Shown one piece after another: positions 20,008 through 46,006 of a stretch of 64,000 bases of DNA. This DNA comes from Promethearchaeota archaeon. Lineage in GTDB: Archaea; Asgardarchaeota; Lokiarchaeia; Sigyniarchaeales; SOKP01. Location of the stretch: contig JAHPZI010000018.1 of assembly GCA_019058295.1 (NCBI GenBank), positions 9,478 through 73,477 of the forward strand. The letters run 5' to 3'. Below the pieces are notes generated by a model. The model did no database searches. It saw nothing but the letters and a program-made list of their open reading frames with translations, and was not told the DNA's origin. The number at the start of each line of letters is the position of its first letter. The stretch's first letter is position 1. Both the position numbers and the translations under genes were made by a program.

Positions 20008-21423
20008 TTATTCACTCAAAAGACCAAATCTTTTAAGACCTTCCCTCATTTCGGCTTGAAATGGACCCGGAGTTCCTTTTATGAATGCTTCAATAATATC
20101 TTGATCTTCTATCCTATTTGAGGAACGCTTTTTAGCCTTTTCCTCTGCAAGAGAAGAAATAGCCATCCTTGCCATGGATTGAAATGCCGGAGGGGATAAT
20201 TGTATAAGCTCCTCAAAGACATTTGCAGTTTCAGGATCCCAGTCTAATCCCTTTTTTGTTTCTTCACTAGGCTCAGAAAGATTAAGCCCAAATTCACGAC
20301 TTGTAATGATGTTTTTTAAATATTCCCTTAAGGACTGAACATAACGTGGAGATTTTTCTTGATCAAGAACCACTGCTTTTTTTGCCCATTCTTTACAATA
20401 GTTACAGTCATCGCACATTGCTACACAATCTTGCTTTTTAAAGAAGTCGATAAAGCCATCTAGTTTGGTGTTGTCAATATATAATTTAGATTTTGATTCT
20501 TTTCCAATAGTTTTAGTTATTCCTATATTAGGATCTTTCTCTTCCAATCCACCGTGAGACATCGAAAATCCTTGAATAATATCAACAAGATTACCTTCAT
20601 ATTTTCGTGATGAAAAAGCTTTTACAGACCTTAGGATCCAATCAGTGGTCATACGCCTTCCCGCGATTTTAAAATCAGTAATCCCAATCTCTTCATAGTG
20701 AACTAAATCTTCTGGACGAACCCAACGACATTTCAATACTTCTTCTGGTGTAGAAAATTTAATGATACTACAATTGATTATACATGTATCTACATAATTA
20801 CGTTCAAATTGTTGATATGTCTGTGAAGCATGTCCTAGGGTATTATAATGATAATATCTAAAAGGACATTGATATAAACATCCATCAGTTAAAAGTAATA
20901 CGATCTTACATTTTACTGCTTTCTTTATTTTACTGAGCGTCTTAAAATCACGATTAATCATTATATCCGGAGTTATTTCATCCGCCCCAAGCATCTCATA
21001 AAATTTAGCTCGATTCACACTATTTACGTGTGAGATGGTAGAAACTCGGACTTTAAGCTTAGGAAACTGTTCTTTAATCAGCTGTATTAAAAAGGGGATA
21101 GTTACAATTACGCTATCGCTACCAATATCACTAATCCATTGAATATACTCGATAAGCTTGCTATGATAATGCGAATCATACTCAATATTGTTCATACAGG
21201 GAGCATTTAGCAAATAAGAAAATTTCATTTTTTTCTTATGTACTTTATCGATATATTCTGCTATATCTCCTTTTGAAATGTCTGGTAATAAAAATGAAGG
21301 GCGCCCTCCTCCCACTATTGAATGATTAGAAACTCCATAGAGATCTGTCACAGGATATTTAGCCAATTCTTCTATTAAGCTTAAGTCCCAATTAGTTGCA
21401 ACATAAAATTGAATTAATATCAC
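20008..21423 (-). CDS. U32-family (UbiU/UbiV-like) Fe-S protein with C-terminal PCP_red/DUF2621-like domain
   Basis: GGGRP, YLLNAPC, GCLYQCPFRYYH..HASQ..C..C, WVRPEDL, FKIAGR; additional C..C..C..C cluster; C-terminal LDWDPE...TPGPF module. Confidence 0.85.
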   Translation of the reverse strand: MILIQFYVATNWDLSLIEELAKYPVTDLYGVSNHSIVGGGRPSFLLPDISKGDIAEYIDKVHKKKMKFSYLLNAPCMNNIEYDSHYHSKLIEYIQWISDIGSDSVIVTIPFLIQLIKEQFPKLKVRVSTISHVNSVNRAKFYEMLGADEITPDIMINRDFKTLSKIKKAVKCKIVLLLTDGCLYQCPFRYYHYNTLGHASQTYQQFERNYVDTCIINCSIIKFSTPEEVLKCRWVRPEDLVHYEEIGITDFKIAGRRMTTDWILRSVKAFSSRKYEGNLVDIIQGFSMSHGGLEEKDPNIGITKTIGKESKSKLYIDNTKLDGFIDFFKKQDCVAMCDDCNYCKEWAKKAVVLDQEKSPRYVQSLREYLKNIITSREFGLNLSEPSEETKKGLDWDPETANVFEELIQLSPPAFQSMARMAISSLAEEKAKKRSSNRIEDQDIIEAFIKGTPGPFQAEMREGLKRFGLLSE

Positions 21424-21522: not shown

Positions 21523-23559
21523 TCATTTATTTGCTATTTCATGAGCTTTTGCGTTAAGCGGTAATAAAGGTGCACATGCCATAAGTTTATTAACATCTCC
21601 TTCTACGATATATGTTCCTGCCATCGTTGCTTGAATCGGATCTGACTCTCCCGAATTAACCTTTTGGATGGTGGCAAAATCCGTTTTATGAATAATTTTT
21701 GGGGCGTCAGGTCCTGAATATTCACCCATCCCCCAATCCATCTTATCTTTATCAACAAATTGCCAGTAATTCATTTCAGGTTTATCACTTATATTATATT
21801 GAAAGATTAATGGAGCAATAGGTTCTAATAAAGGCTTTAAATCCGGCAATTCATTATAAGCTTTCATGAAACGCATAAGATATGCTTCCCATTCTTCCTT
21901 TGTATCCAATTTAATTATCACCTCCTTTAATTTTTGTTTTTCGTCTAATTTAGATTCTTTATTTACTTCTCCCACCTTTTTTACCTTCTGAGAGATGAGT
22001 TCAGTACTTAACGGGAGAGATGTTATATATTCAATCTCATCTCCCGTCATATATTGATTTATATTAATATTCTTTTTAATTAAAAAATCGATATAATCAT
22101 GTTTAAACGGTTGAGGAACTAATTCAATTATTATAGCTATCAATAAATCCTTAGTTACCCTCTTTAATTCTTGCTTTTCTGCAGTTCTTTCTGCAGTAAA
22201 TCCAATTCCCTTGGTTGCAGCCTCATGCATCTCTCTGGGAATTAGGTCCATTACTTCTTTCAAAAATTTTTTTGCATCATTATCCCAAGGAATCCCAAAA
22301 TATGTTCCTATTTCGGCTGATTTAACAGGACTTTTAAGTTTTCGCTCTTCTTTGGATAAAAACATATCTCCTGTATTTAGATATTTTAAGAGATATGCCA
22401 TATATTCCTTATATGATTCTGTAATTCCTCCTTCAGGTTGAGAATAAGCTATTTTTGTTAGACTATGACAATAAAAACATGTGATTCCACAAGTTTCTAC
22501 GCATCTAGCACCTCTATGTGGCATATTTTCAATGAATGTAGTCAGCTTGTTCCCATCTAATACTGCATCAAATTCGGGCACGCTTAACAGTAGACTTTGG
22601 TTATCCGTGTCAGTTCCCATTTTAACTTGCCTAGCGGAAAATTCATTGAATTGATTACCAGCTAAAATTAACGGATCAGATTCGAATGAATAACCATTAA
22701 AAATTTTACCGAGGTTACCATTGGAATTCTTATAACTATAAGCTTTTAATGCATTAAATAACCATTTGGTCCCATATCTCCTTCCAGATATCTTAAAATA
22801 ATCAATACCAATCTCAATATATTTATCAAGATCTGCTGGTTGAATCCATTTAGACATTACTATCTGTTCTTGATTAAAACATTTTTGATTCTGACAGGCA
22901 ATAGTAGCCCAATCATTATAATATCCTTCTAAACAATCATGGGTTTGGCTTGCGTGGGAGCATTCAGTATAATGAAAAAAACGAAAAGGGCATTCATTAA
23001 GACAGCAATCGTTAGTCAATAATTCTATATCACACTTTACTGCTTTTCTAATTTCTTCTAAAAGGGGAAAATTACGATTAAGCATTATAGATAAAGTCAA
23101 TACACCATCAGTACCAATTATTTCTTCCCATTCCAAAGCCCGGGTAAGAGAATTGACTTCAGCTATTACAGAAACCTTTAATTTTAATTTAGGATGATAG
23201 GTTTTAGCAAATTGAGCGAGATAAGGATCTGTAACTGTTAAATATTCTACGCCCAAATCATCTAACCAGTCTAATTCGTATAGTGCTTTTGTTTGTTCTT
23301 TGGAATTAAATTTATAATATCCAAGACACTCACCATTCCATAGCCATGTAAATTTGAAATTTAAATCATGAACTTTATTAATAAATTTTTCAATTTCAGC
23401 TTTATCTCGTTTAGCCATTAAAAAAAAGGGTCGCCCAGATCCAGTGAAACTCATGTCGGAAGCGCCATAAAAATCATTTATAGTTTTCATTAAATGATTA
23501 TCATTTTCTATGAGAGTCAATAAATCTATTTTCCAATTGCATGCTAATGATATTCTCAA
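21523..23559 (-). CDS. U32-family protein fused to PCP_red/DUF2621-like domain and C-terminal SCP2 lipid-binding domain
   Basis: GSGRP, CCLNECPFRFFH..HASQ, WIQPADL, FKISGR; internal IPWDND..VPQPF module; C-terminus SGESDPIQATMAGTYIVEGD typical of SCP2. Confidence 0.85.
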   Translation of the reverse strand: MRISLACNWKIDLLTLIENDNHLMKTINDFYGASDMSFTGSGRPFFLMAKRDKAEIEKFINKVHDLNFKFTWLWNGECLGYYKFNSKEQTKALYELDWLDDLGVEYLTVTDPYLAQFAKTYHPKLKLKVSVIAEVNSLTRALEWEEIIGTDGVLTLSIMLNRNFPLLEEIRKAVKCDIELLTNDCCLNECPFRFFHYTECSHASQTHDCLEGYYNDWATIACQNQKCFNQEQIVMSKWIQPADLDKYIEIGIDYFKISGRRYGTKWLFNALKAYSYKNSNGNLGKIFNGYSFESDPLILAGNQFNEFSARQVKMGTDTDNQSLLLSVPEFDAVLDGNKLTTFIENMPHRGARCVETCGITCFYCHSLTKIAYSQPEGGITESYKEYMAYLLKYLNTGDMFLSKEERKLKSPVKSAEIGTYFGIPWDNDAKKFLKEVMDLIPREMHEAATKGIGFTAERTAEKQELKRVTKDLLIAIIIELVPQPFKHDYIDFLIKKNININQYMTGDEIEYITSLPLSTELISQKVKKVGEVNKESKLDEKQKLKEVIIKLDTKEEWEAYLMRFMKAYNELPDLKPLLEPIAPLIFQYNISDKPEMNYWQFVDKDKMDWGMGEYSGPDAPKIIHKTDFATIQKVNSGESDPIQATMAGTYIVEGDVNKLMACAPLLPLNAKAHEIANK

Positions 23560-23563
23560 AATT

Positions 23564-24715
23564 TCACCTCTGTATTACTCCATTTTCCATAATTTTCATT
23601 TTTTCATCTATTAATCTTAAGATTTTAGCTTTCTCTTCTGCATTTCCATTCCTTAGCTTTTTGGAAAATTCAATGCAATAATTATTTATTTCCTTTTCTG
23701 AAGGATAGTGAGAATCATAAGAGTAATTATTGCAAAATTCATTAACAATTTCAGATTTCAACTCAAATAGAGAATTTTTAACATTATCATAAGGCCAGAA
23801 TTCACCATAAGGTTGAGGAATATTGATAAATTCATTAAAGTTAACTTTTAATTCTCTTTGGGTGTAGCTTCTAATTATTTCAATTATTTTTTTAGAAGTA
23901 AATCCCCCAGTATATAGAGAAAATGTATTATATCCAAGATCTTCATACAATTTTATATTACTTGGTGAAATCCATCCAGCTTTCAAGAGATTTTCAGGTT
24001 TCTCTAACCTTTTTTTCCAGCAGTAGAGTAGTGGGTAATCAAACTCATCTTCAACATCGGATAATTCTTCTTGATTTGAAAAAACAGGGGAACCTATTGT
24101 TCTATGACTTTGTAAGTTATGATGTTGATACCAATGAATACACCCCCAATTACACCCAATATTCAATGGTAAGATATAATCAAGATCTTCAGATCCTTTA
24201 AATTTGTTCTTAAGCTTAATAAAATTTTCTAATACTTTAAAATATCTCAAGATATCAGGATTTAAAATAATAATATCAGCACCAATTTCAAAAAAGATTT
24301 TCCCACGATTTAATGAAGTGACACATTGTGAATATGATAAGTAAATTTTCATCATTGGAGCATTTTCTTTAAAAAATCCAATATTATTTGGAGATGATAA
24401 TAATACATCTTTGTATCCCAACTTCTTTAAATTTTGAATTAAATCTTTTGTAGCTCTATATTGTTGAAAATGAGCTTCTAAATTCCCTTGACAAGTTGAA
24501 TCCAAACCTGCTATTGGAATTATTCCGTTTTCTTGAATTATTTTAGTATATTCTTCAAATTCTTTAATTGATGGGAGATTTCTTGGAAGAAATATTGAAC
24601 TATTCCCAATAGGATTTTGTGGCACGTGAACAATAATATGACTAACTGGTAATTTCTCTTTATTAATAAGAGCAATTAAATCCTTATGATAATCTCCATC
24701 AATTATAAATTTTAT
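23564..24715 (-). CDS. Divergent U32-family protein (apparent ATA start at 24715)
   Basis: LNIGCNWGCIHWYQHH, GWISPSNI; frame open 30 codons upstream of the track start, giving IKFIIDGDYHKDLI, which parallels the N-termini of the two adjacent U32 paralogs. Confidence 0.72.
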   Translation of the reverse strand: MKFIIDGDYHKDLIALINKEKLPVSHIIVHVPQNPIGNSSIFLPRNLPSIKEFEEYTKIIQENGIIPIAGLDSTCQGNLEAHFQQYRATKDLIQNLKKLGYKDVLLSSPNNIGFFKENAPMMKIYLSYSQCVTSLNRGKIFFEIGADIIILNPDILRYFKVLENFIKLKNKFKGSEDLDYILPLNIGCNWGCIHWYQHHNLQSHRTIGSPVFSNQEELSDVEDEFDYPLLYCWKKRLEKPENLLKAGWISPSNIKLYEDLGYNTFSLYTGGFTSKKIIEIIRSYTQRELKVNFNEFINIPQPYGEFWPYDNVKNSLFELKSEIVNEFCNNYSYDSHYPSEKEINNYCIEFSKKLRNGNAEEKAKILRLIDEKMKIMENGVIQR

Positions 24716-24757: not shown

Positions 24758-25930
24758 TTAATTATAAGATTCAAGTCCCGCCTTACAACCCATTGATAAA
24801 AAGTCTACCATCGTGCCGTTATAATCGTTCTCAATCTTGTAATAAAATCCTTTTTGAGAGAATGTAGCGCCCCAAATAAATTTCTTAGAATCGCTTTGGA
24901 GAGGTGTTTTTTCTATGAAATCCCTCATTAAAGGATGAAGATGGGAAGGAACTTCTTTTGGATAATCACATGTGATCCCAAAACATAGTCGCTCGATTTT
25001 ATTTGAATCCCAACTAAAAGTATAGTTAAGATGTGCTGCTTTACGACATCCCTCCATCACCTCTTTGGACGCAGGCTCGAATCCTAGATCTTTCACCAGT
25101 GAAACGCAACTCTCATAAGAAGACTCAGCTGGTTGTTTAAGCATGAAATAAATATTAGTCGTATTATGAAGGAAATCGAATGCAAAAAGACTAAATGAGG
25201 TTAATCCATGCTTATTGAAGTAATCCTTATATGCGTTCATACTCTCTGGAATTGATTTCATGGAATAAATTGGATCAATTGAACCGGGCACAACAAATGG
25301 CCAAATTTTTGATAACCCAGTTTCTGCATCAACATCTACTCCATATCCCATTATCTCGAATGAATTTATAGCTTCAACAATCATTTTATGGATAGGATGT
25401 CCATTTTTTTCTAGTAATCCTTCATTAATTGCAGTTGTATATGGGTCTGGATTATGAGGGATAAAAAATTCAACATATCTTACCGCTACATCTCTTTTTC
25501 CAATGGGTTTAGCGGTGGTTCTTATGGATACGGGAGCTCCTCTAAAAAACTTTTCATAAGTATTAAAGGATTTCCAAATTGCATCCTTATTACATTTTAC
25601 ACCAGCGATATCGCAAATTTTAGCCATATCTTCAACCATTTTATTAAGATCGGTATTACATTTAAAATCACTTTTCACTTTAGCCATATATCTATCATAG
25701 TCCACTCCAAGTTTAGTTAAGTCCTCAATCATTGTTGGTTGAAATGCAGGTGGCGTTACTTCAAACAACGCAACTACTAAATCAACTTCTGCGACTTCTG
25801 TTCCACTTCTTTCCATACATTTTTTTTCTGCTCCTTCGAGGAGTGCAGGTTTTACGGCGGGGCGTACCATCTCAGGTACTCCTAATAACACTTTTTCAAA
25901 AAGTTGTTTTACTTCTGGTTGCCATTCCAT
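24758..25930 (-). CDS. ABBA-family aromatic prenyltransferase (NphB/CloQ-like) with N-terminal PCP_red/DUF2621-like domain
   Basis: DPYTTAINEGLLEKNGHPI, YGVDVDAETGLSKIW, DFLHNTTNIYF, YTFSWDSNKIERLCF, YYKIENDY match NphB/CloQ-type motifs. Confidence 0.85.
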   Translation of the reverse strand: MEWQPEVKQLFEKVLLGVPEMVRPAVKPALLEGAEKKCMERSGTEVAEVDLVVALFEVTPPAFQPTMIEDLTKLGVDYDRYMAKVKSDFKCNTDLNKMVEDMAKICDIAGVKCNKDAIWKSFNTYEKFFRGAPVSIRTTAKPIGKRDVAVRYVEFFIPHNPDPYTTAINEGLLEKNGHPIHKMIVEAINSFEIMGYGVDVDAETGLSKIWPFVVPGSIDPIYSMKSIPESMNAYKDYFNKHGLTSFSLFAFDFLHNTTNIYFMLKQPAESSYESCVSLVKDLGFEPASKEVMEGCRKAAHLNYTFSWDSNKIERLCFGITCDYPKEVPSHLHPLMRDFIEKTPLQSDSKKFIWGATFSQKGFYYKIENDYNGTMVDFLSMGCKAGLESYN

Positions 25931-25969: not shown

Positions 25970-27394
25970 TTATTGTAAATATTTAGCAAATTGAACTTGG
26001 CTCATTTCTGCAAATCCCTCTGGATTATTAAAACCAAGCCCAGGCATCATCCATCTTGGATTTGATTCCCCATACTTTCTTACTATTTGAAATAGATCTA
26101 CTTCCTTGATTTTTGGGGAAATATAAAATTTAGGTTTTAAGAGATTTTCTCCTTTTTGGATAACCCCTTCTTCTTCAGCAATTTGCTGAAGAATTGTATG
26201 AGGATAAATTCTCATACCTATAAAGATGATTACATCTCCATCGCCTTGCCATAAATTTCCTTGATAACTCTCCATAGTCTCAAGTCGATCTAAAGAAACT
26301 TGGATTGTTTCTAGAGTTTCTCCTGGACCTCCAACAATAACATGCAATAATTGCTCAATTTCCAAATCTATACACTTCTTTGACGTAAGAATCGCGTCAT
26401 CTGGAGATCTCGATTTATTCATATTTTTTAACATCTCTTCTGAGAGAGATTCGATACCAGTTGCAAAATGAACCGCACCACTCTCTTTCATGAGAGGCAT
26501 TAAATCTATAAATTTTTTGTTGGGGACATAATTTACGCCCCAGTTTAGGGCTATTTTATTATTAATTATTTCTTGACAGGTATTTTTTACGTGATTATAA
26601 TCCAAATTGAAAACACTGTCCACGATAAATATATTTTTAATTCCGTAATTATTTACAATTAAATCGAGTTCTTTAGCAATATTTCCGGGGGATCTATATC
26701 GAACATTAGAATCCTCAATATACCTATAACTACAGTAAATGCATTTCATAGGACAACCACGTTTAGTTTGAATATTACCCCAAACTGGACCTGATTTATT
26801 CATTGGATCTATAAGATAGGCATCATTTTCCAGCAATTCCCTTGTTGGTATTGGGAGATCATCTAGATTCTCAACCCGCCAAGGTGGTTTATGATGATAT
26901 TTTCCTTTTTGATCTATAAAACAAATACCCTTCTCAATTGTTCTAGGATCGTCATCGTTTTCAATCTTTTTTAAAAATTCCGCAAAGACATATTCACCAT
27001 CCCCAATTACCCCTATATTATGATTTAAATCTCTAAGAATTTCCTCTGAAAAAATTGAAAAACCAGCACCTCCTAACACAATTGGAATTTCCGGTTCTAC
27101 AAGTTCTTTAATATATAAAATAATATTTTTTACTGGTAAGTAAAAGAATAGATTTCCCGGGTATGTTGTTGAGTCAACATTACGAATTGAAATCCCTATT
27201 AAATGAGGATTAAAATCATAAATTACTTTTGAAACATCTTTTTTATAATCATTACTAAGAGTTAAATCAAGCAATTTAACCTCATGACCTTGACTAAGAA
27301 GGTAAGCTGCAAGATATGCTTCTCCTAAGGGAGGGACCATAACATGAACAATCTCCCTACTCCCAGAGATTATTAATACACGCAATTTAATCAC
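25970..27394 (-). CDS. Cobalamin-binding radical SAM protein (TsrM-like / 'lipid biosynthesis B12-rSAM' subfamily)
   Basis: PPLGEAYLAA, GISIRNVD, IQTKRGCPMKCIYC, DSVFN, GGPGET, GMRIYP, LLKPKFYISP. Confidence 0.88.
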   Translation of the reverse strand: MIKLRVLIISGSREIVHVMVPPLGEAYLAAYLLSQGHEVKLLDLTLSNDYKKDVSKVIYDFNPHLIGISIRNVDSTTYPGNLFFYLPVKNIILYIKELVEPEIPIVLGGAGFSIFSEEILRDLNHNIGVIGDGEYVFAEFLKKIENDDDPRTIEKGICFIDQKGKYHHKPPWRVENLDDLPIPTRELLENDAYLIDPMNKSGPVWGNIQTKRGCPMKCIYCSYRYIEDSNVRYRSPGNIAKELDLIVNNYGIKNIFIVDSVFNLDYNHVKNTCQEIINNKIALNWGVNYVPNKKFIDLMPLMKESGAVHFATGIESLSEEMLKNMNKSRSPDDAILTSKKCIDLEIEQLLHVIVGGPGETLETIQVSLDRLETMESYQGNLWQGDGDVIIFIGMRIYPHTILQQIAEEEGVIQKGENLLKPKFYISPKIKEVDLFQIVRKYGESNPRWMMPGLGFNNPEGFAEMSQVQFAKYLQ

Positions 27395-27417: not shown

Positions 27418-28830
27418 TCATTCAATTAATTCGATTTCTTCTTCAATTTCTTCTTTTTGAGAAACATCAACTTCATGTTCATGATCATTTTCATGCCAGC
27501 AGAACGGAAACGATCCAAAGAAATCACCCGTGATATATTCCGCAGTTACACGACATCCCCCACCGCAATATTTTAAATGATGGCAAGAGGCACATTTTCC
27601 TTTAATCTTCTTTCTATCACGAATATCCCTGTAGAGCTGTGAATTTAATACATCTTCAAAATCATCCTCCAATGCATTACCAAGAGTCAATGTTGTAGGA
27701 TATCCCGCAGGGAATATTGTTCCATCTATACCAATTCCCATCATTGTCCTACAAGCTAAACAACCTACTCCCCATTCAATCGCTGCCAATTCTTTATCAT
27801 TTTTTGGATGTTCCATAAAGGGCATCATATCATATATTTCATAAGCAGGTAATGTACCTGCCTTACCTTTCCTTATCGTCTCAATAGCATGTTTGTATTT
27901 GAAATCATACATTTTTTTATATTCTTCTGAATTAAGACCGATTTCATCCCAAAATTCAGCAGCCCGATTTTGTTTCACTACACATCGAAAATATGGTTGT
28001 GATCCCCATTTTTCTGATAATATTTTAATCTCTTCTAATTCATCAATGTTTTGCTTCATAATTGTAATTGAAGAGCATACAAATATTCCATATTTCAAAC
28101 AAAGATCTATTGCTTTCTTAGCATAATCTAAGGAATTGGGAAACCCACGAATCTCATCATTTTTCTTAGGATCAACACTGTCAAAACTAACAAATATATG
28201 ACTAATATTGTTATCTTTACACATTTTGGCGAAATCTTCATCGAATCTCACTCCATTGGTGATAAGAGCGTGAATATAATCCTTCTCTTTACAAAATCTC
28301 ATAATCTCACCAATGTCTTTTCTCAAAGTGGGCTCACCACCAAACCATATAAAGCAGGCATGTCTTCCTTGTTTTCGCAAACCTGTTTCAACATTTTCTA
28401 TTATTTGACACCATTTCTCTGCTGATAATTCTGGCCGTGCTATTTGATCATCCGCAGCACAGTGAATACATTTTTGATTACATTTGTCAGTCAAATACAT
28501 GGCAAAGTGTATATTTCCGGGATGAAACCCCCGCTCTAGTTTTTGCCATGAAACCTTCAATCGATCCTTGATTTCCTTCAGTTCTATATAACGTTCGACA
28601 TCAATTCCTAATTTTGTTAAATCTTCTACCATTATTGATTTAAATGCTTCAGGAATTATGTCAAAAATACCCAGAACAACATCAGCATCATTAATATAAG
28701 CAGCATTCCGATCAAGACATCTTTTTTCTGCAGCCTCTATGATTAATGGTTTCACGGAAGGACGAAATCCTTGTGGCATTTGTTCTACTATTCTACCAAA
28801 TAATTTCTGTGTCTCCTTTTCCCATTCCAT
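27418..28830 (-). CDS. Radical SAM/SPASM protein with N-terminal PCP_red/DUF2621-like domain
   Basis: CNQKCIHC, GGEP, TNG; SPASM GCLAC..KCASC..CGGGCR..PFCW. Confidence 0.9.
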   Translation of the reverse strand: MEWEKETQKLFGRIVEQMPQGFRPSVKPLIIEAAEKRCLDRNAAYINDADVVLGIFDIIPEAFKSIMVEDLTKLGIDVERYIELKEIKDRLKVSWQKLERGFHPGNIHFAMYLTDKCNQKCIHCAADDQIARPELSAEKWCQIIENVETGLRKQGRHACFIWFGGEPTLRKDIGEIMRFCKEKDYIHALITNGVRFDEDFAKMCKDNNISHIFVSFDSVDPKKNDEIRGFPNSLDYAKKAIDLCLKYGIFVCSSITIMKQNIDELEEIKILSEKWGSQPYFRCVVKQNRAAEFWDEIGLNSEEYKKMYDFKYKHAIETIRKGKAGTLPAYEIYDMMPFMEHPKNDKELAAIEWGVGCLACRTMMGIGIDGTIFPAGYPTTLTLGNALEDDFEDVLNSQLYRDIRDRKKIKGKCASCHHLKYCGGGCRVTAEYITGDFFGSFPFCWHENDHEHEVDVSQKEEIEEEIELIE

Positions 28831-28842
28831 AGAATTTCACCT

Positions 28843-30210
28843 TTAAGCACAATTATCATGCTCATGGTCATCATCATGCCAACAAAACGGGAGCTCAGCT
28901 AGAAAATCACCAGTTACGGTTTCAGCATGGACCCTACAACCCCCACCACATAAGTCAAGATGATGACAAGTAGAGCATTTCCCTTTTATTTTTCGATCTC
29001 TAATTTTTTTAAACATTTCGGTTTCCATAATTTCATCCCAACTTTGCTCAAGAATGTTGCCTAAGATTAAATCAGAAGGATAATCACAAGGGAATACATC
29101 TCCATTGGTATCAATCCCAGAAATTGAGCGGCAAGCTTGGCATCCTGTGCCCCATTCGATCGCAGTCCTTTCTTCATCATTTACAGGACACTCCATAAAT
29201 GGCACCATATCCCATGTATAGAATTTATTAAGCGATGAAGCTTCTCCTTTTCTGATAGCTTCTATAGCATGTTTATATTTGAAATCATAGAATTGTCGAT
29301 ATTCATCCATATTTAAGCCAATTTCGTCCCAATTTAAATCGGCCGAACGTTGTTTGATCAGGGGTCTGTAAAAGGGAGTTACTCCTCTAGAGTTAAAATA
29401 TTCCCTTAATTTATCTAATTCATCAAAGTTCTCTTTTTGTGCAGTTACATTAGCAATTGTAAAAAGTCCATATTTTGCAGCTAAATCTAACGCTTTTTCC
29501 CCTGCTTCGTATGCTTTTGGGTGCCCTCTAATTTTTGCAGCCCGTTTGGGATCTGTACTATCATAACTAATAAAAACATGGCTCATTTTAGCATCTGCGC
29601 ATATTTTCGCCAATTCATCATTAAATAAAATTCCATTGGTCGCAAGTGATTGATAATAACCCTTCTCACCGCAATATTTAATTAAATCTTTAAGATCTTT
29701 ACGAATTGTAGGCTCCCCGCCAAACCATATATAACATCCTCGACGACCACGTTTTCGTAAGCTTTGTTCAAGATCCTCAATAATTTCAATCCATGTTTCA
29801 ATGGGTAATTCTGGACGTTTATCCATTACCGAAGCAGCACAATGAAGACAATTTTGATTGCATCGGTCAGTGAGATATATAGTAAAATGATAAACCCCGG
29901 GTAAAAAGGCACCACTAATTTCATCCCATGTACGTGCATATTTTGTTCTAATTTCTGATAATTTTACATAGCGATCTGTATCAATATCTAATTTTTTTAA
30001 ATCTTCGACTACTGCTGGTTGAAATGCCTCGGGTGTTATCTCAAATAGTGCAGAAAGCAAATCATCTTCACTTACAAATCCAGAATTCCTAAGTCGTGCT
30101 GTTTTTTCAGCAGCTTCTCGCAACATAGGCTTAACAGAAGCACGAAATGCCTCAGGTACTTGATCTGTGATTTTTCCAAACATTTGTTCCATTTCTATAT
30201 TCCATTCCAT
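28843..30210 (-). CDS. Radical SAM/SPASM protein with N-terminal PCP_red/DUF2621-like domain (paralog of 27418..28830)
   Basis: CNQNCLHC, GGEP, TNG; SPASM GCQAC..FPCD..KCSTC..CGGGCR..PFCW. Confidence 0.9.
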   Translation of the reverse strand: MEWNIEMEQMFGKITDQVPEAFRASVKPMLREAAEKTARLRNSGFVSEDDLLSALFEITPEAFQPAVVEDLKKLDIDTDRYVKLSEIRTKYARTWDEISGAFLPGVYHFTIYLTDRCNQNCLHCAASVMDKRPELPIETWIEIIEDLEQSLRKRGRRGCYIWFGGEPTIRKDLKDLIKYCGEKGYYQSLATNGILFNDELAKICADAKMSHVFISYDSTDPKRAAKIRGHPKAYEAGEKALDLAAKYGLFTIANVTAQKENFDELDKLREYFNSRGVTPFYRPLIKQRSADLNWDEIGLNMDEYRQFYDFKYKHAIEAIRKGEASSLNKFYTWDMVPFMECPVNDEERTAIEWGTGCQACRSISGIDTNGDVFPCDYPSDLILGNILEQSWDEIMETEMFKKIRDRKIKGKCSTCHHLDLCGGGCRVHAETVTGDFLAELPFCWHDDDHEHDNCA

Positions 30211-31130: not shown

Positions 31131-32621
31131 TTATTTATCTCTCTTTTTAGGATATTTCGAACTAGATGTTAGAAGCATAGGTGCAGTGCTTAAAAATAAT
31201 AGCATGTTTGCATAACGAATAAAACCTCCAGAAAAATGTTTCTTATCATAGTTAATTACATTATAAAAATAGGATGGTTTAGTTCGCTTGAAAATGTTAA
31301 CAATCTGCGGAAAAGAATTAAATTTTAGTTTTATTTTAAATTTTTCAGGAGATTCATGGGCAGGAGAACCAGGGAAAATATGATAAGGTTCACTCATAAT
31401 TGTAATTGGTTTGAAATTGGAATTACCATATTTTAAAAGGCATTTAGTCGCAAAATGAAAATCCTTAAGAATATCAAACCGATTTTGGAAAGGAAGACCG
31501 ATAGTTAACCATATCCGTAATAATATTTGAGATAAATTTGCATTTTTTATTAAATCATTAATTTGACTTTCTGGAAATTTAAATGTTGGATCACAAGTTT
31601 TAGCTATTTTTTGCTGAACTTTAGCTGATAATGTTCGAGGAGAAATACTGATTGATGAATATCTACGAGCAAAAGTCTTCTCAAAGATTCTCCACATTTC
31701 TTTAGGAAAGGGTAGCCGCCATATCTCTAAATCTCCACTAATATCAATTTTTTCCTTTTGAATCAGCCCAAATAATTTTTTCCAATATTTTAAATTAGCA
31801 GGATATGTACCATGTCCGAAAAAGACACTTGGAACTTTATAATTGTCGAGAATATTGTGGAGATCTTCTATTATTTTTTCTGGACTTCTGAGAACGACCT
31901 CATTTCGACCCGTTAGTTTTTGCTGAGCTCTTTGACCTCCTCCACAAAAAGGACAATTAAATGGACAGCCCCTTCCAATTGGAAGATTGAGAGAGATTCC
32001 CATAATCTTTCTGCTATACTCAAGATATTGTTTTGCATTATTTAGAAGTGATACATTAATAAAATTCAAATCATCCAATGTTTTTGCTGTATAGGAAAGA
32101 GAATTAACTTTTATGTGTTTAGAGGTATCTCGATAAGATAAATTGGGAACAGAATCTAATGATTGATTTTTATTAATCTTTTGAACATATTTTAAAAATG
32201 GAACTTCCCCTTCGCCTCTAATTATACCGTCAATTTCTTTATAGTATTTTAATAGTTCACTATGGTAATATGAAGCACTAAAACCTCCAAGAATTACATT
32301 AGCATGGGGATTTACTTTTTTTACGATTCTAGCAACTTCAATAGCACCATTTGCATTATGTATCCAATGTAAATCTATTCCACATACATCAAAATTAATA
32401 TTTTTAAGAAAGTCGGCTAATGACCAATTACGATTTAGATATTGCTCTAATGGATAATTTATAATTTTAACTCCAAAACCCCCTTTCTCAAGCAAATCGG
32501 CAATGCTAAAAACACCCATTGGAATGAATAAATATTCCCCTCGTTTAAATTTGGATCTTTTATTATTAATAGGTTTTACTACTCTAGGTGGATGGATGAG
32601 TAAAACATCGTAGCTTTTCAA
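31131..32621 (-). CDS. Cobalamin-binding radical SAM protein (CloN6-like N-terminus)
   Basis: DVLLIHPP, GIDLHW..A.E.A..VK, GGFSASYY, RGEGE, GRGCPFNCPFC. Confidence 0.87.
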   Translation of the reverse strand: MKSYDVLLIHPPRVVKPINNKRSKFKRGEYLFIPMGVFSIADLLEKGGFGVKIINYPLEQYLNRNWSLADFLKNINFDVCGIDLHWIHNANGAIEVARIVKKVNPHANVILGGFSASYYHSELLKYYKEIDGIIRGEGEVPFLKYVQKINKNQSLDSVPNLSYRDTSKHIKVNSLSYTAKTLDDLNFINVSLLNNAKQYLEYSRKIMGISLNLPIGRGCPFNCPFCGGGQRAQQKLTGRNEVVLRSPEKIIEDLHNILDNYKVPSVFFGHGTYPANLKYWKKLFGLIQKEKIDISGDLEIWRLPFPKEMWRIFEKTFARRYSSISISPRTLSAKVQQKIAKTCDPTFKFPESQINDLIKNANLSQILLRIWLTIGLPFQNRFDILKDFHFATKCLLKYGNSNFKPITIMSEPYHIFPGSPAHESPEKFKIKLKFNSFPQIVNIFKRTKPSYFYNVINYDKKHFSGGFIRYANMLLFLSTAPMLLTSSSKYPKKRDK

Positions 32622-35300: not shown

Positions 35301-36746
35301 ATGAAAATCAATCTTATTAATCCCGCACCTTCAAAAATAAAAGATGGCCAAACCGAAACATTGTTTTATGCTTCTGCTCCTCCATTAGGATTAATGTACC
35401 TTGCCACATATTTGAAAGATGCAGGTCATAAAATTTCTATTTTAGATCAAGCAGCTGTTAATTATGAAAATAGAGATGTTATTAATTGGGTTAAAAAGAG
35501 AAATCCAGATGTAGTAGGTTTTTCAATTTTATGCGCTTCCGTAGAGAATGCAAAATTAATATCTAAAGCATTAAAAACCCTAAATCCGAATCTAAAAATC
35601 ATTTTTGGGAATTATCTTGCTACATTCTATGCAAGAAAAATCTTAGAACATTATGATTGGGTGGATATATGTGTGAGAGGGGATGGTGAAATAACTTTCT
35701 CAGAGCTTATTGAAAAAATAGAATTGAATAAAGATCTTAATGATGTCGATGGAATAACATACAAACGTAATGGTAAAATTAAAGAGAATAAGAATCGACA
35801 GCTATTAAAAAATCTTGATACATTACCATTTCCTGACCAAAAATTGATTCCAAATGTATATAAGAATCGAATCGGTGGAATTGATGTTTCACCGCGAAAA
35901 TTTACTACGATGGTTACTTCTCGAGGATGCCCTTTTGGATGCAATTTCTGCGCATGCACAGCATTCTCTCAAGGGCTATGGAGGACTCGATCAGTAAATA
36001 ATATATTTGAAGAGATTTGTGAATTAGCTAATCAAGGTTTTCAAGAAATCCTTTTTGTTGATGATAATTTTACATTAAATACGAAAAGAATTATTAAGTT
36101 ATGTGATAAAATTAGGAAAGAAAAATTGGATATGGTATTTGTATGTGATGGAAGAGTAAACAAGAGCTCTATTGGTTTATTAAGAACCATGAAAAAAGCA
36201 AAATTTGAAATCTTAATGCTTGGATTAGAAAGTAGTTCTCAAAGAATGTTAGATTTTTATAATAAAAAAATAACACCACAGATGAGTGAAACTGCTGTGA
36301 ACAATGCCCGTAAAGCGGGTTTCAAGATGATTGTTGGTTCGTTTATGATTGGTGGATTCGATGAAACCTATACTGAGGCAATTAATACTCTTAAATTTAT
36401 TTCAAAACTTGATATTGATTTTCCTCATATAATTTTTACTCGTGCATTACCTGGAACTAAACTTTTCAATAATTTAATTCAAAATAATGTTATAGATGAA
36501 GATAAATATTGGGAAAGAGGTGTAGATCTTATTGATTTACCTGGTGCGAAAATGAAACGCGAGATAATCTATCAAATAATAAAGGAACAATTCCATAAAA
36601 ATTTCTTAAGACGAAAATATTTGATTAAAGCTTTTATACGAACAATAATGAGCAAATACAGACAAGATATGATTTTAAGTCATCTTAATTTTCATGATAT
36701 AGATAAATTTGTAAAGTTAATCAATAATCCCCCTGATTTATTTTAG
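35301..36746 (+). CDS. Cobalamin-binding radical SAM protein
   Basis: PPLGLMYLA, RGDGE, TSRGCPFGCNFC, DDNF, GLESSSQR. Confidence 0.92.
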   Translation: MKINLINPAPSKIKDGQTETLFYASAPPLGLMYLATYLKDAGHKISILDQAAVNYENRDVINWVKKRNPDVVGFSILCASVENAKLISKALKTLNPNLKIIFGNYLATFYARKILEHYDWVDICVRGDGEITFSELIEKIELNKDLNDVDGITYKRNGKIKENKNRQLLKNLDTLPFPDQKLIPNVYKNRIGGIDVSPRKFTTMVTSRGCPFGCNFCACTAFSQGLWRTRSVNNIFEEICELANQGFQEILFVDDNFTLNTKRIIKLCDKIRKEKLDMVFVCDGRVNKSSIGLLRTMKKAKFEILMLGLESSSQRMLDFYNKKITPQMSETAVNNARKAGFKMIVGSFMIGGFDETYTEAINTLKFISKLDIDFPHIIFTRALPGTKLFNNLIQNNVIDEDKYWERGVDLIDLPGAKMKREIIYQIIKEQFHKNFLRRKYLIKAFIRTIMSKYRQDMILSHLNFHDIDKFVKLINNPPDLF

Positions 36747-36774: not shown

Positions 36775-38280
36775 TTGAAAATTGCGTTAATAAATCCAAG
36801 TTTAGAAACAAAAATTTATTCCCCGTGGCCTCCATTAGGAATATTATATTTAGGAACAATATTGAAAGAGAATGGGTTTACAGTTAAATTATTGGATGCG
36901 GCAGCTAAATTTTATGGAAAAAATGAAGTTTTAAATTGGTTAAAACATGTAAAACCTGATATAGTAGGTATTTCTGTCTTTACAATAGCATTTCTTCCAG
37001 CAATAAATCTCATTAAAGTAATCAAAAACTGGAATCCTTCCATAAAAATCGTAATAGGGCATTATCATCCCACTATGGAGGCAGAAAACATACTTCGTAA
37101 GTATGGAGATTATGTTGATTATTGCGTAAGAGGAGAAGGAGAGTATACTCTCTTAGAACTATGTGAATTTTTAGATAAGAATGACAATAAATTACCAAAT
37201 GATATCAAAGGTCTCGCATTTCGAGATTCTAATAAGAAAATTGTTTTAACTCCTGAAGCTCCTTTAATAATAGATTTGGACTCGCTTCCGTTTCCTGATA
37301 GAAGATTGCTTGATTTTGAATATAAATGGAATTTCTCAGGATTTGAGTTCTCGAAATCAAAATTAACTTCGCTAGTGTCGTCTCGAGGGTGTCCATTTAA
37401 TTGTTCATATTGTGCATGTACTAAATTTGCGAAACGTCGATTTAGACCAAGAAGTCCTGAGAATATTATAAATGAGATGCTTCTAATTCAAAATCATGGG
37501 TATACACAATTAAATTTTGTCGATGATAATTTTACATTACAACCGAAAAGAACCATAGAAATATGTCGACTAATGAAAAAAGAGAAGATTGATATCAATT
37601 GGCATACAGATGGACGAGTTGACCAAACGTCCCAAGAGATGCTGAATCTGATGAAAAAAGCTGGATGTAAATCGATATGGTTTGGATTTGAAAGTGCAAA
37701 TCAGAGAATTCTGAATATATATAATAAGAGAACAAAAGTGTCTCAATTCTATGAAGCGATTCGTAAAACACGGAAAGCAAATATAGAACTTATTGTTGGA
37801 TTATTTATGCTCGGTGCACCGACAGAAACGTTAGATGAAGTGAAAAGGACTATAGAATTTGCAGTTAAATCTGATATCGATGTGCCATTTTTTAATGTTG
37901 TAGAGATTTTTTCAGGAACAAAATTTTGGGATGATTACAATTCAAATGGAAACATCAATCAATATGATAAAGTAAAAGCTCTCGTAGGTGAGGAAATCTA
38001 TGAAGTTGAGCGATGGGAGACAACAACTAGAGTAATGGACTTTTTATTATCCCCAGAAGAACGAGAACAAATGTTAAATGAAATTCAAACTGCATACCAA
38101 ACATTTTTCTCTTTTGAGCGCAAGATGATATTTATGTGGAAGATGCTCTATCGTACAGTAAGAAGTAGATTCATGCTAAATATGGCATACAATATTATGA
38201 GAAACTTTAAAGGGGCTTTGGGAGCAATATCTGCATTTAGGAATTCTAAACCTCGAGGTTTTGGTACCTACGATGAGTAA
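36775..38280 (+). CDS. Cobalamin-binding radical SAM protein
   Basis: PPLGILYL, RGEGE, SSRGCPFNCSYC, DDNF, GFESANQR. Confidence 0.92.
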   Translation: MKIALINPSLETKIYSPWPPLGILYLGTILKENGFTVKLLDAAAKFYGKNEVLNWLKHVKPDIVGISVFTIAFLPAINLIKVIKNWNPSIKIVIGHYHPTMEAENILRKYGDYVDYCVRGEGEYTLLELCEFLDKNDNKLPNDIKGLAFRDSNKKIVLTPEAPLIIDLDSLPFPDRRLLDFEYKWNFSGFEFSKSKLTSLVSSRGCPFNCSYCACTKFAKRRFRPRSPENIINEMLLIQNHGYTQLNFVDDNFTLQPKRTIEICRLMKKEKIDINWHTDGRVDQTSQEMLNLMKKAGCKSIWFGFESANQRILNIYNKRTKVSQFYEAIRKTRKANIELIVGLFMLGAPTETLDEVKRTIEFAVKSDIDVPFFNVVEIFSGTKFWDDYNSNGNINQYDKVKALVGEEIYEVERWETTTRVMDFLLSPEEREQMLNEIQTAYQTFFSFERKMIFMWKMLYRTVRSRFMLNMAYNIMRNFKGALGAISAFRNSKPRGFGTYDE

Positions 38281-38300: not shown

Positions 38301-39740
38301 ATGAAAATTGCGCTAATTTTTCCGGTTCCGATGGACTTAAAACGAGAAGACCCTCGTCCCATGTTTTCATCATTTGCGGAACCCTTGGGACTATTATATA
38401 TCGCAGGAGTCTTAATAGATGGGGGATATGATGTATCGATATTAGATCATGGTGCAACAGATTATACATTCGATGATGTATTAAATTGGATAAAAAAACA
38501 GAATCCTGATGTCCTTGGTATTTCAGTTTTAACCCGATCTTTTCAATCGGGAATAAGAATAGCGAAATTAGCAAAAGAGTGGAACCCAAACCTAACCATA
38601 ATTTTAGGTAATTATCAAACTGTCTGCGCTGAAAGGATATTACAGAAGTATAACTTCATAGATTTGTGTGTCCGTGGTGAAGGTGAATACACTATGTTAG
38701 AGCTACTACCATTGATTCAAAAAAATAACACCAACTATGAGAATATTAAAGGAATATATTATAGAAAAAACGGAATTGTCAAATCAACTCCGCCTCGTGA
38801 ACTAGAAAAAAATCTAGATAAATTCCCAATTCCCAATCGTACATTAATTGAAGGAGTAAAATATAAAATGTCTATGGGAGGATTAGAGCTTTCTAAAGAG
38901 AAATCGGCAACTATTATGATGAGCCGGGGATGTCCTTATCAATGTAGATTCTGTTCAGTTAATCATGAGAGTTGGAGGCATAGATCAGCTCACAATATAA
39001 TTCAAGAGCTACATCTTATGGAATCTCAAGGGTATCGAGAAATCATGATTATGGATGATAACTTTACAATAAATCCTAAATGGGTAATTGAGATATGCAA
39101 AAATATTATGAAAGAAAAAATCGATTTAGTATTTCATTGTGAAGCTAGAATTGAAGGAACAAAAGAAATGTATGAATATATGAACAGAGCTAATGTTAAA
39201 ACTATTTTTTATGGTATGGAAAGCGGTAGTCAACGAGTTTTGGATTATTACAAAAAAAATATTACCCCTGCTCAGTGTAAGTTGGCTTTAAAAAAAGCAA
39301 GAAAAGCGGGAATTGATATGTTATTCGCTTCTTTTATTGTTGGTGCCCCAATCGAAACAATCAATGATATACAAAAAACAACAAATTTAGCTTTGAGTCT
39401 GGACATTGATTATGCGATGTTTCATGTGTTTGAAGTATTTCCAGGTATTAAAATCTGGGATGAATTAGTAGAACAAAATAAGGTTGATGAAAATAAATAT
39501 TGGGAATCTGGTGTTCGAGTAGCTGAACTTCCGTTTTATAATATCAATCTTGATGTTTTAATAGAAACAATAAGAAGAACTTATAAAAAATTTTATTCAT
39601 TAGCAAGACCAAAATTCATTTTCAAGCAATTTTTAAGGTCAATAAAAAGTAATTATCGTCGTGATAAATTAAAAAATCTAGGAAAAGATTTTCATTCATC
39701 GTTAAAGATGTTGGAGTCATTAAGTGAAAAAAGATTCTGA
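38301..39740 (+). CDS. Cobalamin-binding radical SAM protein
   Basis: EPLGLLYIA, RGEGE, SRGCPYQCRFC, DDNF, GMESGSQR. Confidence 0.92.
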   Translation: MKIALIFPVPMDLKREDPRPMFSSFAEPLGLLYIAGVLIDGGYDVSILDHGATDYTFDDVLNWIKKQNPDVLGISVLTRSFQSGIRIAKLAKEWNPNLTIILGNYQTVCAERILQKYNFIDLCVRGEGEYTMLELLPLIQKNNTNYENIKGIYYRKNGIVKSTPPRELEKNLDKFPIPNRTLIEGVKYKMSMGGLELSKEKSATIMMSRGCPYQCRFCSVNHESWRHRSAHNIIQELHLMESQGYREIMIMDDNFTINPKWVIEICKNIMKEKIDLVFHCEARIEGTKEMYEYMNRANVKTIFYGMESGSQRVLDYYKKNITPAQCKLALKKARKAGIDMLFASFIVGAPIETINDIQKTTNLALSLDIDYAMFHVFEVFPGIKIWDELVEQNKVDENKYWESGVRVAELPFYNINLDVLIETIRRTYKKFYSLARPKFIFKQFLRSIKSNYRRDKLKNLGKDFHSSLKMLESLSEKRF

Positions 39741-44527: not shown

Positions 44528-46006
44528 TTAATAAAGTGGGGTTTTATCATCAGAAAACCTTCCAAAACCTGACATTTTTAGATGTCTAAATTGCATAATC
44601 ATTCTCATTCCAGTAGGGAAATGTTTCAAGAAATTTAAACCAAGATTTCTCTTATATGGACTTAATAGCATACTAGGAAGGAACTTTACATTTCTAAATG
44701 AAATATGTTGCCTATAAGCTTTTCTAATCAACCCCAATATAAGTTTTCTCTGTCTTTCTGTGTGAGTAAAATCCATTACTCTAAGTGAAGTCTCCCAATT
44801 TTTATCTTCATCAATAAGTCCCTTTGAGACTAGATCATCCCACATTGGGATTCCGGGCCAAGCTTCAACTACATTTAAAAAGAAAAAATCCAAACCGGAC
44901 TTCAATGCAAATTGTATTGTGTTTTGGCACTCGGATATTGTTTCATATGGAGCACCAACCATAAATAATCCAATTACAAAATCTATTTTAGCTTCTTTTG
45001 CCATTTTAATAGCTTTTAAAGACTGGTCAGGTGTTATATTTTTATTATAATAATTTAAAATTCTTTGATTAGCACTCTCGATTCCAAAACTAATAGATTT
45101 ACAACCAGCCGATGCCATTTTTTCGAAAAATTCCCTTGTAACTCTATCAACCCGCATTTCAGCATGCCAATTGATGTCAAGATTTTCATTTTTTAGTAAT
45201 TTACAAAATTTTAACACATTCTTAAGATTTAGTGAAAAATTATCATCTACAAATGCAATTTCAGAATATCCTTGTGAAGCTAAATATGAAAACTCTTCAA
45301 CTAAACGTTCAGGAGATTTAGTTCTATATTGTCTATTGGAGAATTTAGCCACGGCGCAATAAGCACACCCATAAGGACAGCCACGAGTAAAAAAAGTTGT
45401 AGCTAATTTTGAATCCATTAATTCTATTCCTGCTAAATTCTGCCGATATTGAATATTGATAAGTGAACGATCAGGAAAAGACAGATCATCTAAATTTTTA
45501 GTAACTGGACAATCAGGATTGTGTCTAATTTTTCCATTAAATTGATAACTTATTCCTAATATATCAGTAGGTTCACGAATAGGATGTTTTTCCAGATAAT
45601 TAATTAAATTAGATAAAATATATTCATTTTCTCCTCGAACACAATAATCTACGAGATGATTATACTTTCTTAAAATATTATCCGCACAAATTGTTGGATG
45701 ATAATGTCCTAATACAATTTTTACATTTGGATTCCATTTTTTAACCATCTGGGATATTTTAATGGAAGATAAAAATCCTACAGTAAATGTTGTAATTCCA
45801 ATAATTTCAGGATCTACTTTTTTTATCCATTTTAATACTTCTTCAAAACTAAATCCGTTCGATGCTTGATCTAATAATTTAACCTGATGCCCCTGTTCTT
45901 TTAAAATCGTTCCTAATAAAATAATTCCTAATGGAGGCCATTTTTGTCCATAAAATTGTTCCTTTTCTCCTAAAACTGGACTAGGATTGATGAGTGCAAT
46001 TTTCAA
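44528..46006 (-). CDS. Cobalamin-binding radical SAM protein (close paralog of 36775..38280)
   Basis: MKIALINPS, WPPLG, GHYHPT, TRGCPYGCAYC, DDNF, GIESANQR. Confidence 0.92.
   Translation of the reverse strand: MKIALINPSPVLGEKEQFYGQKWPPLGIILLGTILKEQGHQVKLLDQASNGFSFEEVLKWIKKVDPEIIGITTFTVGFLSSIKISQMVKKWNPNVKIVLGHYHPTICADNILRKYNHLVDYCVRGENEYILSNLINYLEKHPIREPTDILGISYQFNGKIRHNPDCPVTKNLDDLSFPDRSLINIQYRQNLAGIELMDSKLATTFFTRGCPYGCAYCAVAKFSNRQYRTKSPERLVEEFSYLASQGYSEIAFVDDNFSLNLKNVLKFCKLLKNENLDINWHAEMRVDRVTREFFEKMASAGCKSISFGIESANQRILNYYNKNITPDQSLKAIKMAKEAKIDFVIGLFMVGAPYETISECQNTIQFALKSGLDFFFLNVVEAWPGIPMWDDLVSKGLIDEDKNWETSLRVMDFTHTERQRKLILGLIRKAYRQHISFRNVKFLPSMLLSPYKRNLGLNFLKHFPTGMRMIMQFRHLKMSGFGRFSDDKTPLY

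Follow-up and report, generated by a model that had tools for sequence, protein, structure and literature searches.

The window analyzed here is a stretch of 64,000 nucleotides from contig JAHPZI010000018.1 of a Promethearchaeota archaeon (assembly GCA_019058295.1, positions 9,478 to 73,477 of the forward strand), and its minus strand carries, at exactly 24758..25930, a single ATG-to-stop open reading frame (ORF) of 390 residues. As judged from its sequence and its predicted structure, the encoded protein is a soluble member of the CloQ/NphB-type (ABBA, PF11468) family of PT-barrel prenyltransferases. When all of the evidence is taken together, it is likely that this prenyltransferase (hereafter PT) is a functional, Mg2+-independent enzyme in an SCP2-assisted, O2-independent aromatic-lipid pathway encoded by the surrounding operon, with a small helical module serving as the common adaptor of the operon enzymes.

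The match to PF11468 (PTase_Orf2) spans residues 94–378 with an expect value (E) of 1.6e-53 (182.4 bits, where the cut-off is 22) and covers positions 2–283 of the 287 in the profile; an NCBIfam search returned no model for the PT protein. An ABBA-type soluble aromatic prenyltransferase had been proposed in the original prediction, which was made from the DNA letters, and this assignment is borne out by the profile match, by the hydropathy of the protein and by the structural model described below. All of the NphB/CloQ motifs quoted in its support are found (DPY at residue 162, GLSKIW at 205, NIYF at 259, SWDSNKIERLCF at 306 and YYKIE at 363), with a trivial error of one residue in the spacing given for GL....HP. 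The accompanying likeness to NphB and CloQ holds at the level of the family, but the closest solved relatives are AmbP1, AmbP3 and FamD1 together with EpzP. Matches of the single sequence to PDB entries gave E 1.9e-37 for FamD1/AmbP3, 1.6e-32 for EpzP, 2e-26 for NphB and 3e-13 for CloQ, and a profile search of the PDB sequences ranked the solved relatives in the same order. The 120 homologues listed are mostly 390 residues long and are 37–95% identical to PT, with the protein length retained down to 37% identity, and those that are named are nearly all from Asgard metagenome-assembled genomes (MAGs).

An AlphaFold2 model of full-length PT, built from an alignment of 39 homologues, is globular with a mean predicted local distance difference test (pLDDT) score of 95.1 and a predicted template modeling (TM) score of 0.92. 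The model is composed of a five-helix N-terminal domain followed by ten strands (residues 134–139, 148–154, 193–201, 205–217, 245–252, 257–264, 300–306, 314–321, 351–358 and 361–369), which are arranged as five β-hairpins between helices, in keeping with the PT barrel anticipated in the original prediction. Comparison with the PDB using Foldseek returned all of the solved members of the CloQ/NphB family at target-normalized TM scores of 0.78–0.92, with AmbP3 at 0.91, the set of AmbP3, FamD1 and AmbP1 at 0.84–0.92 (E ~1e-27), EpzP at 0.85, NphB at ~0.81 and CloQ at ~0.78. DMATS-type (FgaPT2/CymD) and cyanobactin-type (LimF/KgpF) enzymes were considered and ruled out: these barrels show distant fold similarity to the PT model at most (TM 0.40–0.49, 8–11% identity, E 2e-6 or worse), and a Pfam scan of PT gave no match to either family. 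A UbiA-type membrane prenyltransferase was also rejected, since the Pfam scan of the ORF gave no match to PF01040, a search of the sequence for the Asp-rich (N/D)DxxD motif found none, and there is no hydrophobic segment (maximum 19-residue Kyte-Doolittle mean 1.14; grand average of hydropathy −0.25). Because the fold match is accompanied by the absence of both the hydrophobic segment and the motif, PT is taken to be a soluble PT-barrel enzyme rather than a UbiA-type enzyme. Three separate UbiA-family genes are found in the same genome, all on other contigs.

The diphosphate site of EpzP is formed by R49, K117, R232, K283, N172, Y174 and Y220, and R49 and R62 occupy the positions that separate Mg2+-independent from Mg2+-dependent enzymes (PMC3485228). 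In the same enzyme R267 fixes the substrate carboxylate, while A285, at whose position EpzP uses a water molecule as base, is the equivalent of CloQ E281, which deprotonates the sigma complex and whose substitution in E281Q leaves 1% activity (PMC3485228). By alignment, EpzP R49, R62, K117, N172, Y174, R232, K283 and A285 correspond to R137, R151, K208, N259, Y261, R314, K365 and E367 of PT, W210 was also mapped as a catalytic residue through the hidden Markov model (HMM) alignment to EpzP, and K349/K350 align with EpzP R267. The Mg2+-binding D62 of NphB aligns with A149 of PT, and an Asp is found at this position in none of the 56 sequences of the anaerobe clade, which includes the enzymes from Asgard archaea and strict anaerobes. 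R151, K208, N259, Y261, R314, K365 and E367 are near-universal across 153 family members, in which R137 is also conserved; within the anaerobe clade K208, R314 and K365 are not universal, so some of its paralogues may have altered or lost activity. From the residues aligned at these positions, PT is predicted to work without Mg2+, to use a Glu as base in the manner of CloQ and to act on an anionic phenolic acceptor.

The atypical N-terminal accessory-domain fusion noted in the original prediction is upheld, with the first ~90 residues forming an extra domain according to the module alignment, Pfam and the homologues. By module alignment and Pfam, copies of this module are present on five operon proteins, PT and four neighbors: it is N-terminal on both SPASM radical S-adenosylmethionine (SAM) proteins, internal in the U32/SCP2 protein (about residues 425–505) and C-terminal on the third U32 protein (DUF2621 match at residues 394–453). 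The DUF2621 matches on the module are all sub-threshold, scoring 16–26 bits where 27.7 would be needed (E 0.0094 in PT, 1e-5 to 5e-4 in the paralogous copies), and PCP_red is matched on the paralogous copies at E ~0.04–0.05. When modeled alone with AlphaFold2, the module forms a five-helix bundle (pLDDT 91) that is all-helical save for two short strand contacts. Its ESM Atlas neighbors are clusters of stand-alone DUF2621/PCP_red proteins of 85–89 residues (0.86–0.95), and a search of the PDB sequences with the module profile gave chance-level rows at most (E 0.025 or worse).

The placement of the module differs among PT homologues. It is N-terminal in most of them, C-terminal in a subclade that includes P0114, P0115, P0117, the Thermoplasmata protein and proteins from Aminicenantes and Clostridia MAGs, and missing from some relatives (Odinarchaeota P0116 and the Pseudobacteroides enzyme). 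Because of this variation, the module is better described as a portable adaptor than as part of the catalytic core. Its carriers in a profile search of longer proteins were PTs, SPASM enzymes, U32 proteins and one aldehyde:ferredoxin oxidoreductase, the 711-residue metagenome protein P0299, in which the module lies C-terminal to AFOR_N and AFOR_C; the module is therefore not restricted to the enzyme families of the operon. A role as the common adaptor of the five operon enzymes is the most likely one. Natural fusions to other domains are found in distant members of the PT family, with P0261 (627 residues) joining a PT-barrel prenyltransferase to a polyprenyl synthetase and P0144 (611 residues) joining one to a FAD_binding_4 oxidase.

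The PT gene is positioned within a run of seven co-oriented genes that extends from 30210 down to 20008 with gaps of 4–132 bp (Table 1). For the B12-binding radical SAM enzyme of this operon, the top NCBIfam rows fall under their cut-offs. For the analysis of synteny, the cluster proteins were compared by tblastn with 44 loci from species-representative genomes; the order SPASM1–SPASM2–(B12 radical SAM)–PT–(U32a–U32b/SCP2)–U32c is found in most of the Asgard loci, dozens in number. The operon is also found in Promethearchaeota MAGs that were assembled independently, on long contigs that include ones of 461 kb and 498 kb. Tandem PT genes or a second complete paralogous cluster are present in some Asgard MAGs (L010:8715-11167, L012:6-2341 and two copies in L026; 51–58% identity).

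SCP2-like lipid-binding domains are linked to PT in several ways in addition to the C-terminus of the U32b protein. A shorter form of the operon has a stand-alone SCP2 gene encoding 129 residues directly after the PT gene, and the 536-residue variants P0049, P0053 and P0065, metagenome proteins that are 66–68% identical to the window PT and represent three clusters of 4 to 48 members, are SCP2-module-PT triple fusions. The N-terminal SCP2 part of these variants and the C-terminus of U32b share 53% identity (E 9e-44). These neighboring genes and fusions point to a lipid, not a peptide, as the substrate. The Thermoplasmata chromosome CP070629 encodes a SPASM protein, a PT with a C-terminal module, a SPASM-SCP2 fusion and a SPASM protein with the module. 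A cluster in a Pseudobacteroides MAG is made up of a HemN-like radical SAM gene, three U32 genes with the module, a radical SAM gene and three SPASM genes with the module, together with PT and, at its end, a NUDIX hydrolase and a DAHP synthase (L036:14777-15826), the last of which gives a hint of a dedicated supply of shikimate-derived precursor. In the Thermoplasmata chromosome and in bacterial MAGs the PT gene adjoins SPASM genes, which are accompanied by U32 genes in some cases and not in others. Judged from these arrangements, PT, the SPASM radical SAM enzymes, SCP2 and the module constitute the core that travels together, and the U32 and B12 enzymes are frequent additions to it.

PF11468 is present in 32 of the 400 genomes of the window's GTDB phylum, with 28 of the 32 falling among the 134 genomes of its own family and the remainder in the same class; it is found in 13 of 90 high-quality genomes of the phylum and in 4 of 9 within the genus. 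NCBI names some of the positive MAGs Thor-, Hermod-, Hod- or Odinarchaeota, names that need care given that the GTDB tally comprises one class. The original prediction placed the enzyme in an archaeon, and the genome is indeed of the Loki type of Asgard, but the clade is not specific to archaea. The reduced operon form is found in one Thermoplasmata genome and in anaerobic bacteria, including the cultured Acetivibrio clariflavus, whose DSM 19732 protein WP_014254177.1 (380 residues, N-terminal module) is in one bacterial cluster. The PT gene has a G+C content (GC) of 0.361, a GC at third codon positions (GC3) of 0.266 and a codon-usage correlation with other genes of r 0.85, all inside the ranges of the 34 other tabulated ORFs of the window (GC 0.26–0.40, GC3 0.18–0.33, r 0.77–0.96). 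The composition is thus ameliorated, which agrees with the earlier view that the codon style matches the neighbors and that the gene is not a very recent import.

The PT family is small, given that a search in which all of 1.84 billion representatives were scored yielded 215 clusters at E 0.001 or better. Rows shorter than 250 residues or with fewer than 220 aligned domain residues were omitted from the phylogenetic trees, and because short diagnostic motifs of NphB, EpzP, AmbP1 and AmbP3 gave no match among the 50%-identity representatives, the characterized enzymes are absent from them. A quick tree of 153 domains places all of the module-bearing enzymes in one 56-row clade, with a Shimodaira–Hasegawa-like approximate likelihood ratio test (SH-aLRT) support of 92. 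In a careful tree of 69 rows (LG+C20+F+G4, with four rows taken from the quick tree's far clade as an assumed outgroup), the 17 rows of an Asgard core clade group together (support 99/84), and their sister (100/97) is a 9-row, long-branched clade of the Deltaproteobacteria type, which contains P0162, P0189 and P0191 and includes three proteins from MAGs that NCBI assigns to Deltaproteobacteria. The module-less Odinarchaeota protein branches next (100/99), and the other bacterial and Thermoplasmata sequences are poorly resolved. Judged by these sequence trees, the PT clade has clearly moved between domains, and the trees give no direction for the movement.

In the proposed mechanism, an isoprenyl diphosphate would be held inside the barrel through its diphosphate group by R137, R151, K208, N259, Y261, R314 and K365, which would also favor its ionization, and the resulting carbocation would be shielded by W210 and tyrosines. 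The cation would then alkylate an aromatic acceptor, which is probably phenolic, carboxylate-bearing and shikimate-derived, and E367 would take the proton from the sigma complex in the manner of E281 in CloQ. The lipophilic product is expected to be held by the SCP2 domain and may undergo further O2-independent modification by the two SPASM radical SAM enzymes, the B12 radical SAM enzyme (a presumed methylase) and the U32 (UbiU/UbiV-like) Fe-S enzymes. The module would dock each enzyme to one common partner, which could be the other enzymes, the SCP2 carrier or a shared feature of the substrate. In a more specific and considerably more tentative version of this scheme, the product would be a quinone-like redox lipid with a prenylated aromatic ring, made without O2 by an undescribed route whose committed step is catalyzed by PT. 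The route would be carried out in a soluble, SCP2-centered assembly recruited by the PCP_red-like adaptor, with the PT barrel replacing UbiA, and would be common to many anaerobic bacteria, some Thermoplasmata and the Loki-type Asgard archaea. Such an assembly would be the soluble equivalent, in anaerobes, of the ubiquinone metabolon.

Several observations weigh against this picture. The residue mapping was made through HMM alignment of our own family profile to EpzP, and is therefore a sequence alignment rather than a superposition of model coordinates, and Y220 of the EpzP diphosphate site maps to N302, so the tyrosine is not retained. The SCP2 assignments are borderline, at 19–23 bits against a Pfam cut-off of 21.3, with U32b itself at 21.0 bits. 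For the module, the best Foldseek rows are the PCP_red nuclear magnetic resonance structures 2l09 and 2kru at E 0.15–0.3, which is weak and generic, and a VIA search put the BchI AAA+ lid on top at Z 8.2, a level that is indecisive for helical bundles, with 2l09 at Z 6.0. The O-methyltransferases and decarboxylases that are usual in quinone pathways have no counterpart in the operon. Because the distribution described above is patchy (32 of 400 genomes in the phylum, 4 of 9 in the genus), an optional specialized metabolite fits better than a core respiratory cofactor, and as between a quinone-like cofactor and such a metabolite the distribution favors the latter.

An alternative that we consider unlikely is a pathway of the type that makes ribosomally synthesized and post-translationally modified peptides (RiPPs), in which PT would alkylate Tyr or Trp of a precursor peptide, the SPASM enzymes would be maturases and the module would be a leader-peptide recognition element. 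SPASM radical SAM enzymes are typical peptide maturases, and mycofactocin, PqqE and a number of RiPP maturases are among the NCBIfam rows, with E between 1e-20 and 1e-31; the repetition of one recognition domain on several tailoring enzymes also resembles the logic of RiPP recognition elements. However, among 1,146 small ORFs of 18–130 residues at 45 loci, the range that the precursor search covered (ORFs under 18 residues and precursors encoded elsewhere being outside its scope), no small ORF is conserved besides the SCP2 gene and its shadow frames. The SCP2 neighbors and fusions speak for a lipid, and PT falls in the small-molecule CloQ/NphB family rather than the cyanobactin family, with LimF and KgpF reaching a TM score of 0.45 at most. 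The module, with its two short strand contacts in an otherwise all-helical bundle, is also unlike the winged-helix PqqD-type elements. A peptide is thus the less likely substrate.

Tailoring of a tetrapyrrole-like cofactor, to which PT would add an isoprenoid tail, appears less probable still. This idea draws on the best NCBIfam rows of both SPASM proteins, which are AhbD, NirJ and AhbC at E 1e-35 to 1e-40, on the distant resemblance of the module to PCP_red (a domain of protochlorophyllide reductase subunit B) and on the HemN-like radical SAM gene of the Pseudobacteroides cluster. The AhbD, NirJ and AhbC scores are nonetheless far under the equivalog cut-offs (for example, 139 against 500 bits), and known tetrapyrrole prenylation is carried out by membrane enzymes of the UbiA type. 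The DAHP synthase neighbor, the CloQ-like Glu base and the basic residue at the carboxylate position fit a small phenolic acid better.

That the gene is a bacterial contaminant, part of a chimeric contig or a decaying, non-functional import is very unlikely, for although the source MAG is 79% complete with 3.6% contamination, a search of it for an archaeal 16S rRNA gene found none and the wider PT family is mostly bacterial, the same operon lies on the long contigs of independently assembled Promethearchaeota MAGs, the gene is found in other genomes of the same genus, the ATP-dependent DNA ligase of the window is 96% identical in one of these (G168) and 77% identical in G174, GC and codon usage agree with the neighbors, and the frame is intact, with the catalytic residues retained and the length constant among homologues to 37% identity. 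The contig is thus most unlikely to be bacterial or chimeric, a concern that the original prediction had raised.

Table 1. Location of the PT gene, its two domains and the other six genes of the operon within the window
Feature	Position	Strand	Evidence
Whole ORF: adaptor module and ABBA aromatic prenyltransferase (PT)	24758..25930	-	ORF listing, homologues, AlphaFold2
N-terminal helical adaptor module, residues 1–88, DUF2621/PCP_red-like	25667..25930	-	Module alignment, sub-threshold Pfam, AlphaFold2
PT-barrel catalytic domain, residues 94–390 and stop codon	24758..25651	-	PF11468, ten predicted strands, Foldseek
Radical SAM/SPASM protein 1, N-terminal module	28843..30210	-	Pfam Radical_SAM and SPASM, module alignment, synteny
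Radical SAM/SPASM protein 2, N-terminal module	27418..28830	-	Pfam Radical_SAM, SPASM and weak DUF2621, synteny
B12-binding (class B) radical SAM enzyme, separated from the downstream PT gene by 39 bp	25970..27394	-	Pfam B12-binding and Radical_SAM, synteny
U32-like a, without module	23564..24625	-	No Pfam match of its own; syntenic with U32b in Asgard loci
U32b: U32, internal module and C-terminal SCP2-like lipid-binding domain	21523..23559	-	Pfam Peptidase_U32, SCP2, DUF2621
U32c: U32 and C-terminal module	20008..21423	-	Pfam Peptidase_U32 and DUF2621, synteny

The B12-binding (class B) radical SAM gene of the operon is one of seven in the window (25970-27394, 31131-32621, 35301-36746, 36775-38280, 38301-39740, 44528-46006 and 47666-49120), three of which are in tandem and adjoin genes for a CDP-alcohol phosphatidyltransferase and a GT2 glycosyltransferase. 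Elsewhere in the window, two neighboring ORFs of 613 and 615 residues (51612-53453 and 53563-55410) gave no Pfam match and have the top GC among the tabulated ORFs (0.39–0.40; GC3 0.31–0.33). The window also encodes three tandem leucine-rich-repeat proteins (56693-58198, 58783-60285 and 60301-61641), the first two of which also have HEAT repeats; proteins of this kind have frequently been reported from Loki-type Asgard genomes. An Rfam scan of the window gave no match.

To our knowledge, PT-barrel prenyltransferases have been studied in bacteria and fungi only and have been treated as tools of aerobic secondary metabolism. The NCBI pipeline already labels the proteins described here "aromatic prenyltransferase", and our literature search found no paper on the operon and none that reports this enzyme family from archaea, Asgard or otherwise; the window PT is thus a member of a known family with a new architecture and a new pathway context. 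The well-conserved clade to which it belongs occurs in strict anaerobes and in the Asgard archaea, which among prokaryotes are the nearest kin of the eukaryotes, and is tied to radical SAM, U32 and SCP2 proteins, a context that points to an undescribed pathway toward a lipophilic prenylated aromatic compound. If the product were a redox-active lipid, the view of electron carriers and membrane chemistry in these organisms would change, and the common adaptor domain, if its role is as proposed, would represent a new way to organize a pathway of lipid modification by soluble enzymes. The clade is also a source of predicted Mg2+-independent prenyltransferases from anaerobes for use in biocatalysis, and the homologue in cultured A. 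clariflavus makes experiments feasible now.

The window PT exhibits its strongest similarity, in both sequence and fold, to AmbP1, AmbP3 and FamD1 (PDB 5yk9, 5y4g and 5ynt), with 28–30% identity, ~290 residues superposed and E-values of 1e-35 to 1e-37 for the single sequence and 1e-59 for the profile. These enzymes share with PT the arginine of IR(T) and the G..K.W, N.YF, ER.CF and Y.K.(E/D).DY motifs. They are, however, single-domain proteins of ~300 residues that act as indole prenyltransferases on indole isonitrile substrates in the aerobic secondary metabolism (hapalindole/ambiguine) of cyanobacteria, they have an Asp where PT has E367, and they lack both the module and the radical SAM/U32/SCP2 gene context. 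In comparison with the Streptomyces phenazine prenyltransferases EpzP and PpzP (PDB 4ee6), PT has both of the arginines associated with Mg2+ independence, an EpzP-like diphosphate site that is kept apart from the single Tyr-to-Asn difference, and a basic residue (K349/K350) at the position that fixes the carboxylate. EpzP differs in its A285/water base, which is a Glu in PT, and in being a monomeric, single-domain enzyme from an actinobacterial phenazine cluster. The CloQ and NovQ enzymes (PDB 2xlq), which are Mg2+-independent 4-hydroxyphenylpyruvate prenyltransferases of aminocoumarin biosynthesis, may provide the best functional analogy, through the Mg2+-independent architecture, the phenolic acid substrate and the E281 base, which corresponds to E367 by way of the EpzP A285 equivalence. 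CloQ is farther in sequence (E 3e-13, TM 0.78), consists of a single domain and belongs to an aerobic pathway of antibiotic synthesis in actinobacteria. NphB (Orf2) from Streptomyces sp. CL190 (PDB 1zb6) shares the fold and the family (E 2e-26, TM 0.81), but its dependence on Mg2+ is conferred by an aspartate where the window PT has A149, and this Asp is gone from the whole anaerobe clade.

At the level of the pathway, the closest parallel is O2-independent ubiquinone synthesis, in which the U32 Fe-S proteins UbiU and UbiV work with the SCP2 protein UbiT (PMC6747719). Homologues of UbiE, UbiG or UbiD/X are not present in the window operon. By analogy, the combination of UbiA with UbiT, UbiU and UbiV would follow the same logic as that proposed here, with prenylation of the ring, handling of the lipid by SCP2 and modification by U32 Fe-S proteins free of O2. 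The ubiquinone route prenylates with the membrane enzyme UbiA, whereas the window operon encodes a soluble PT-barrel enzyme for this step and adds to the UbiT/UbiU/UbiV arrangement the SPASM and B12 radical SAM enzymes and the common module.

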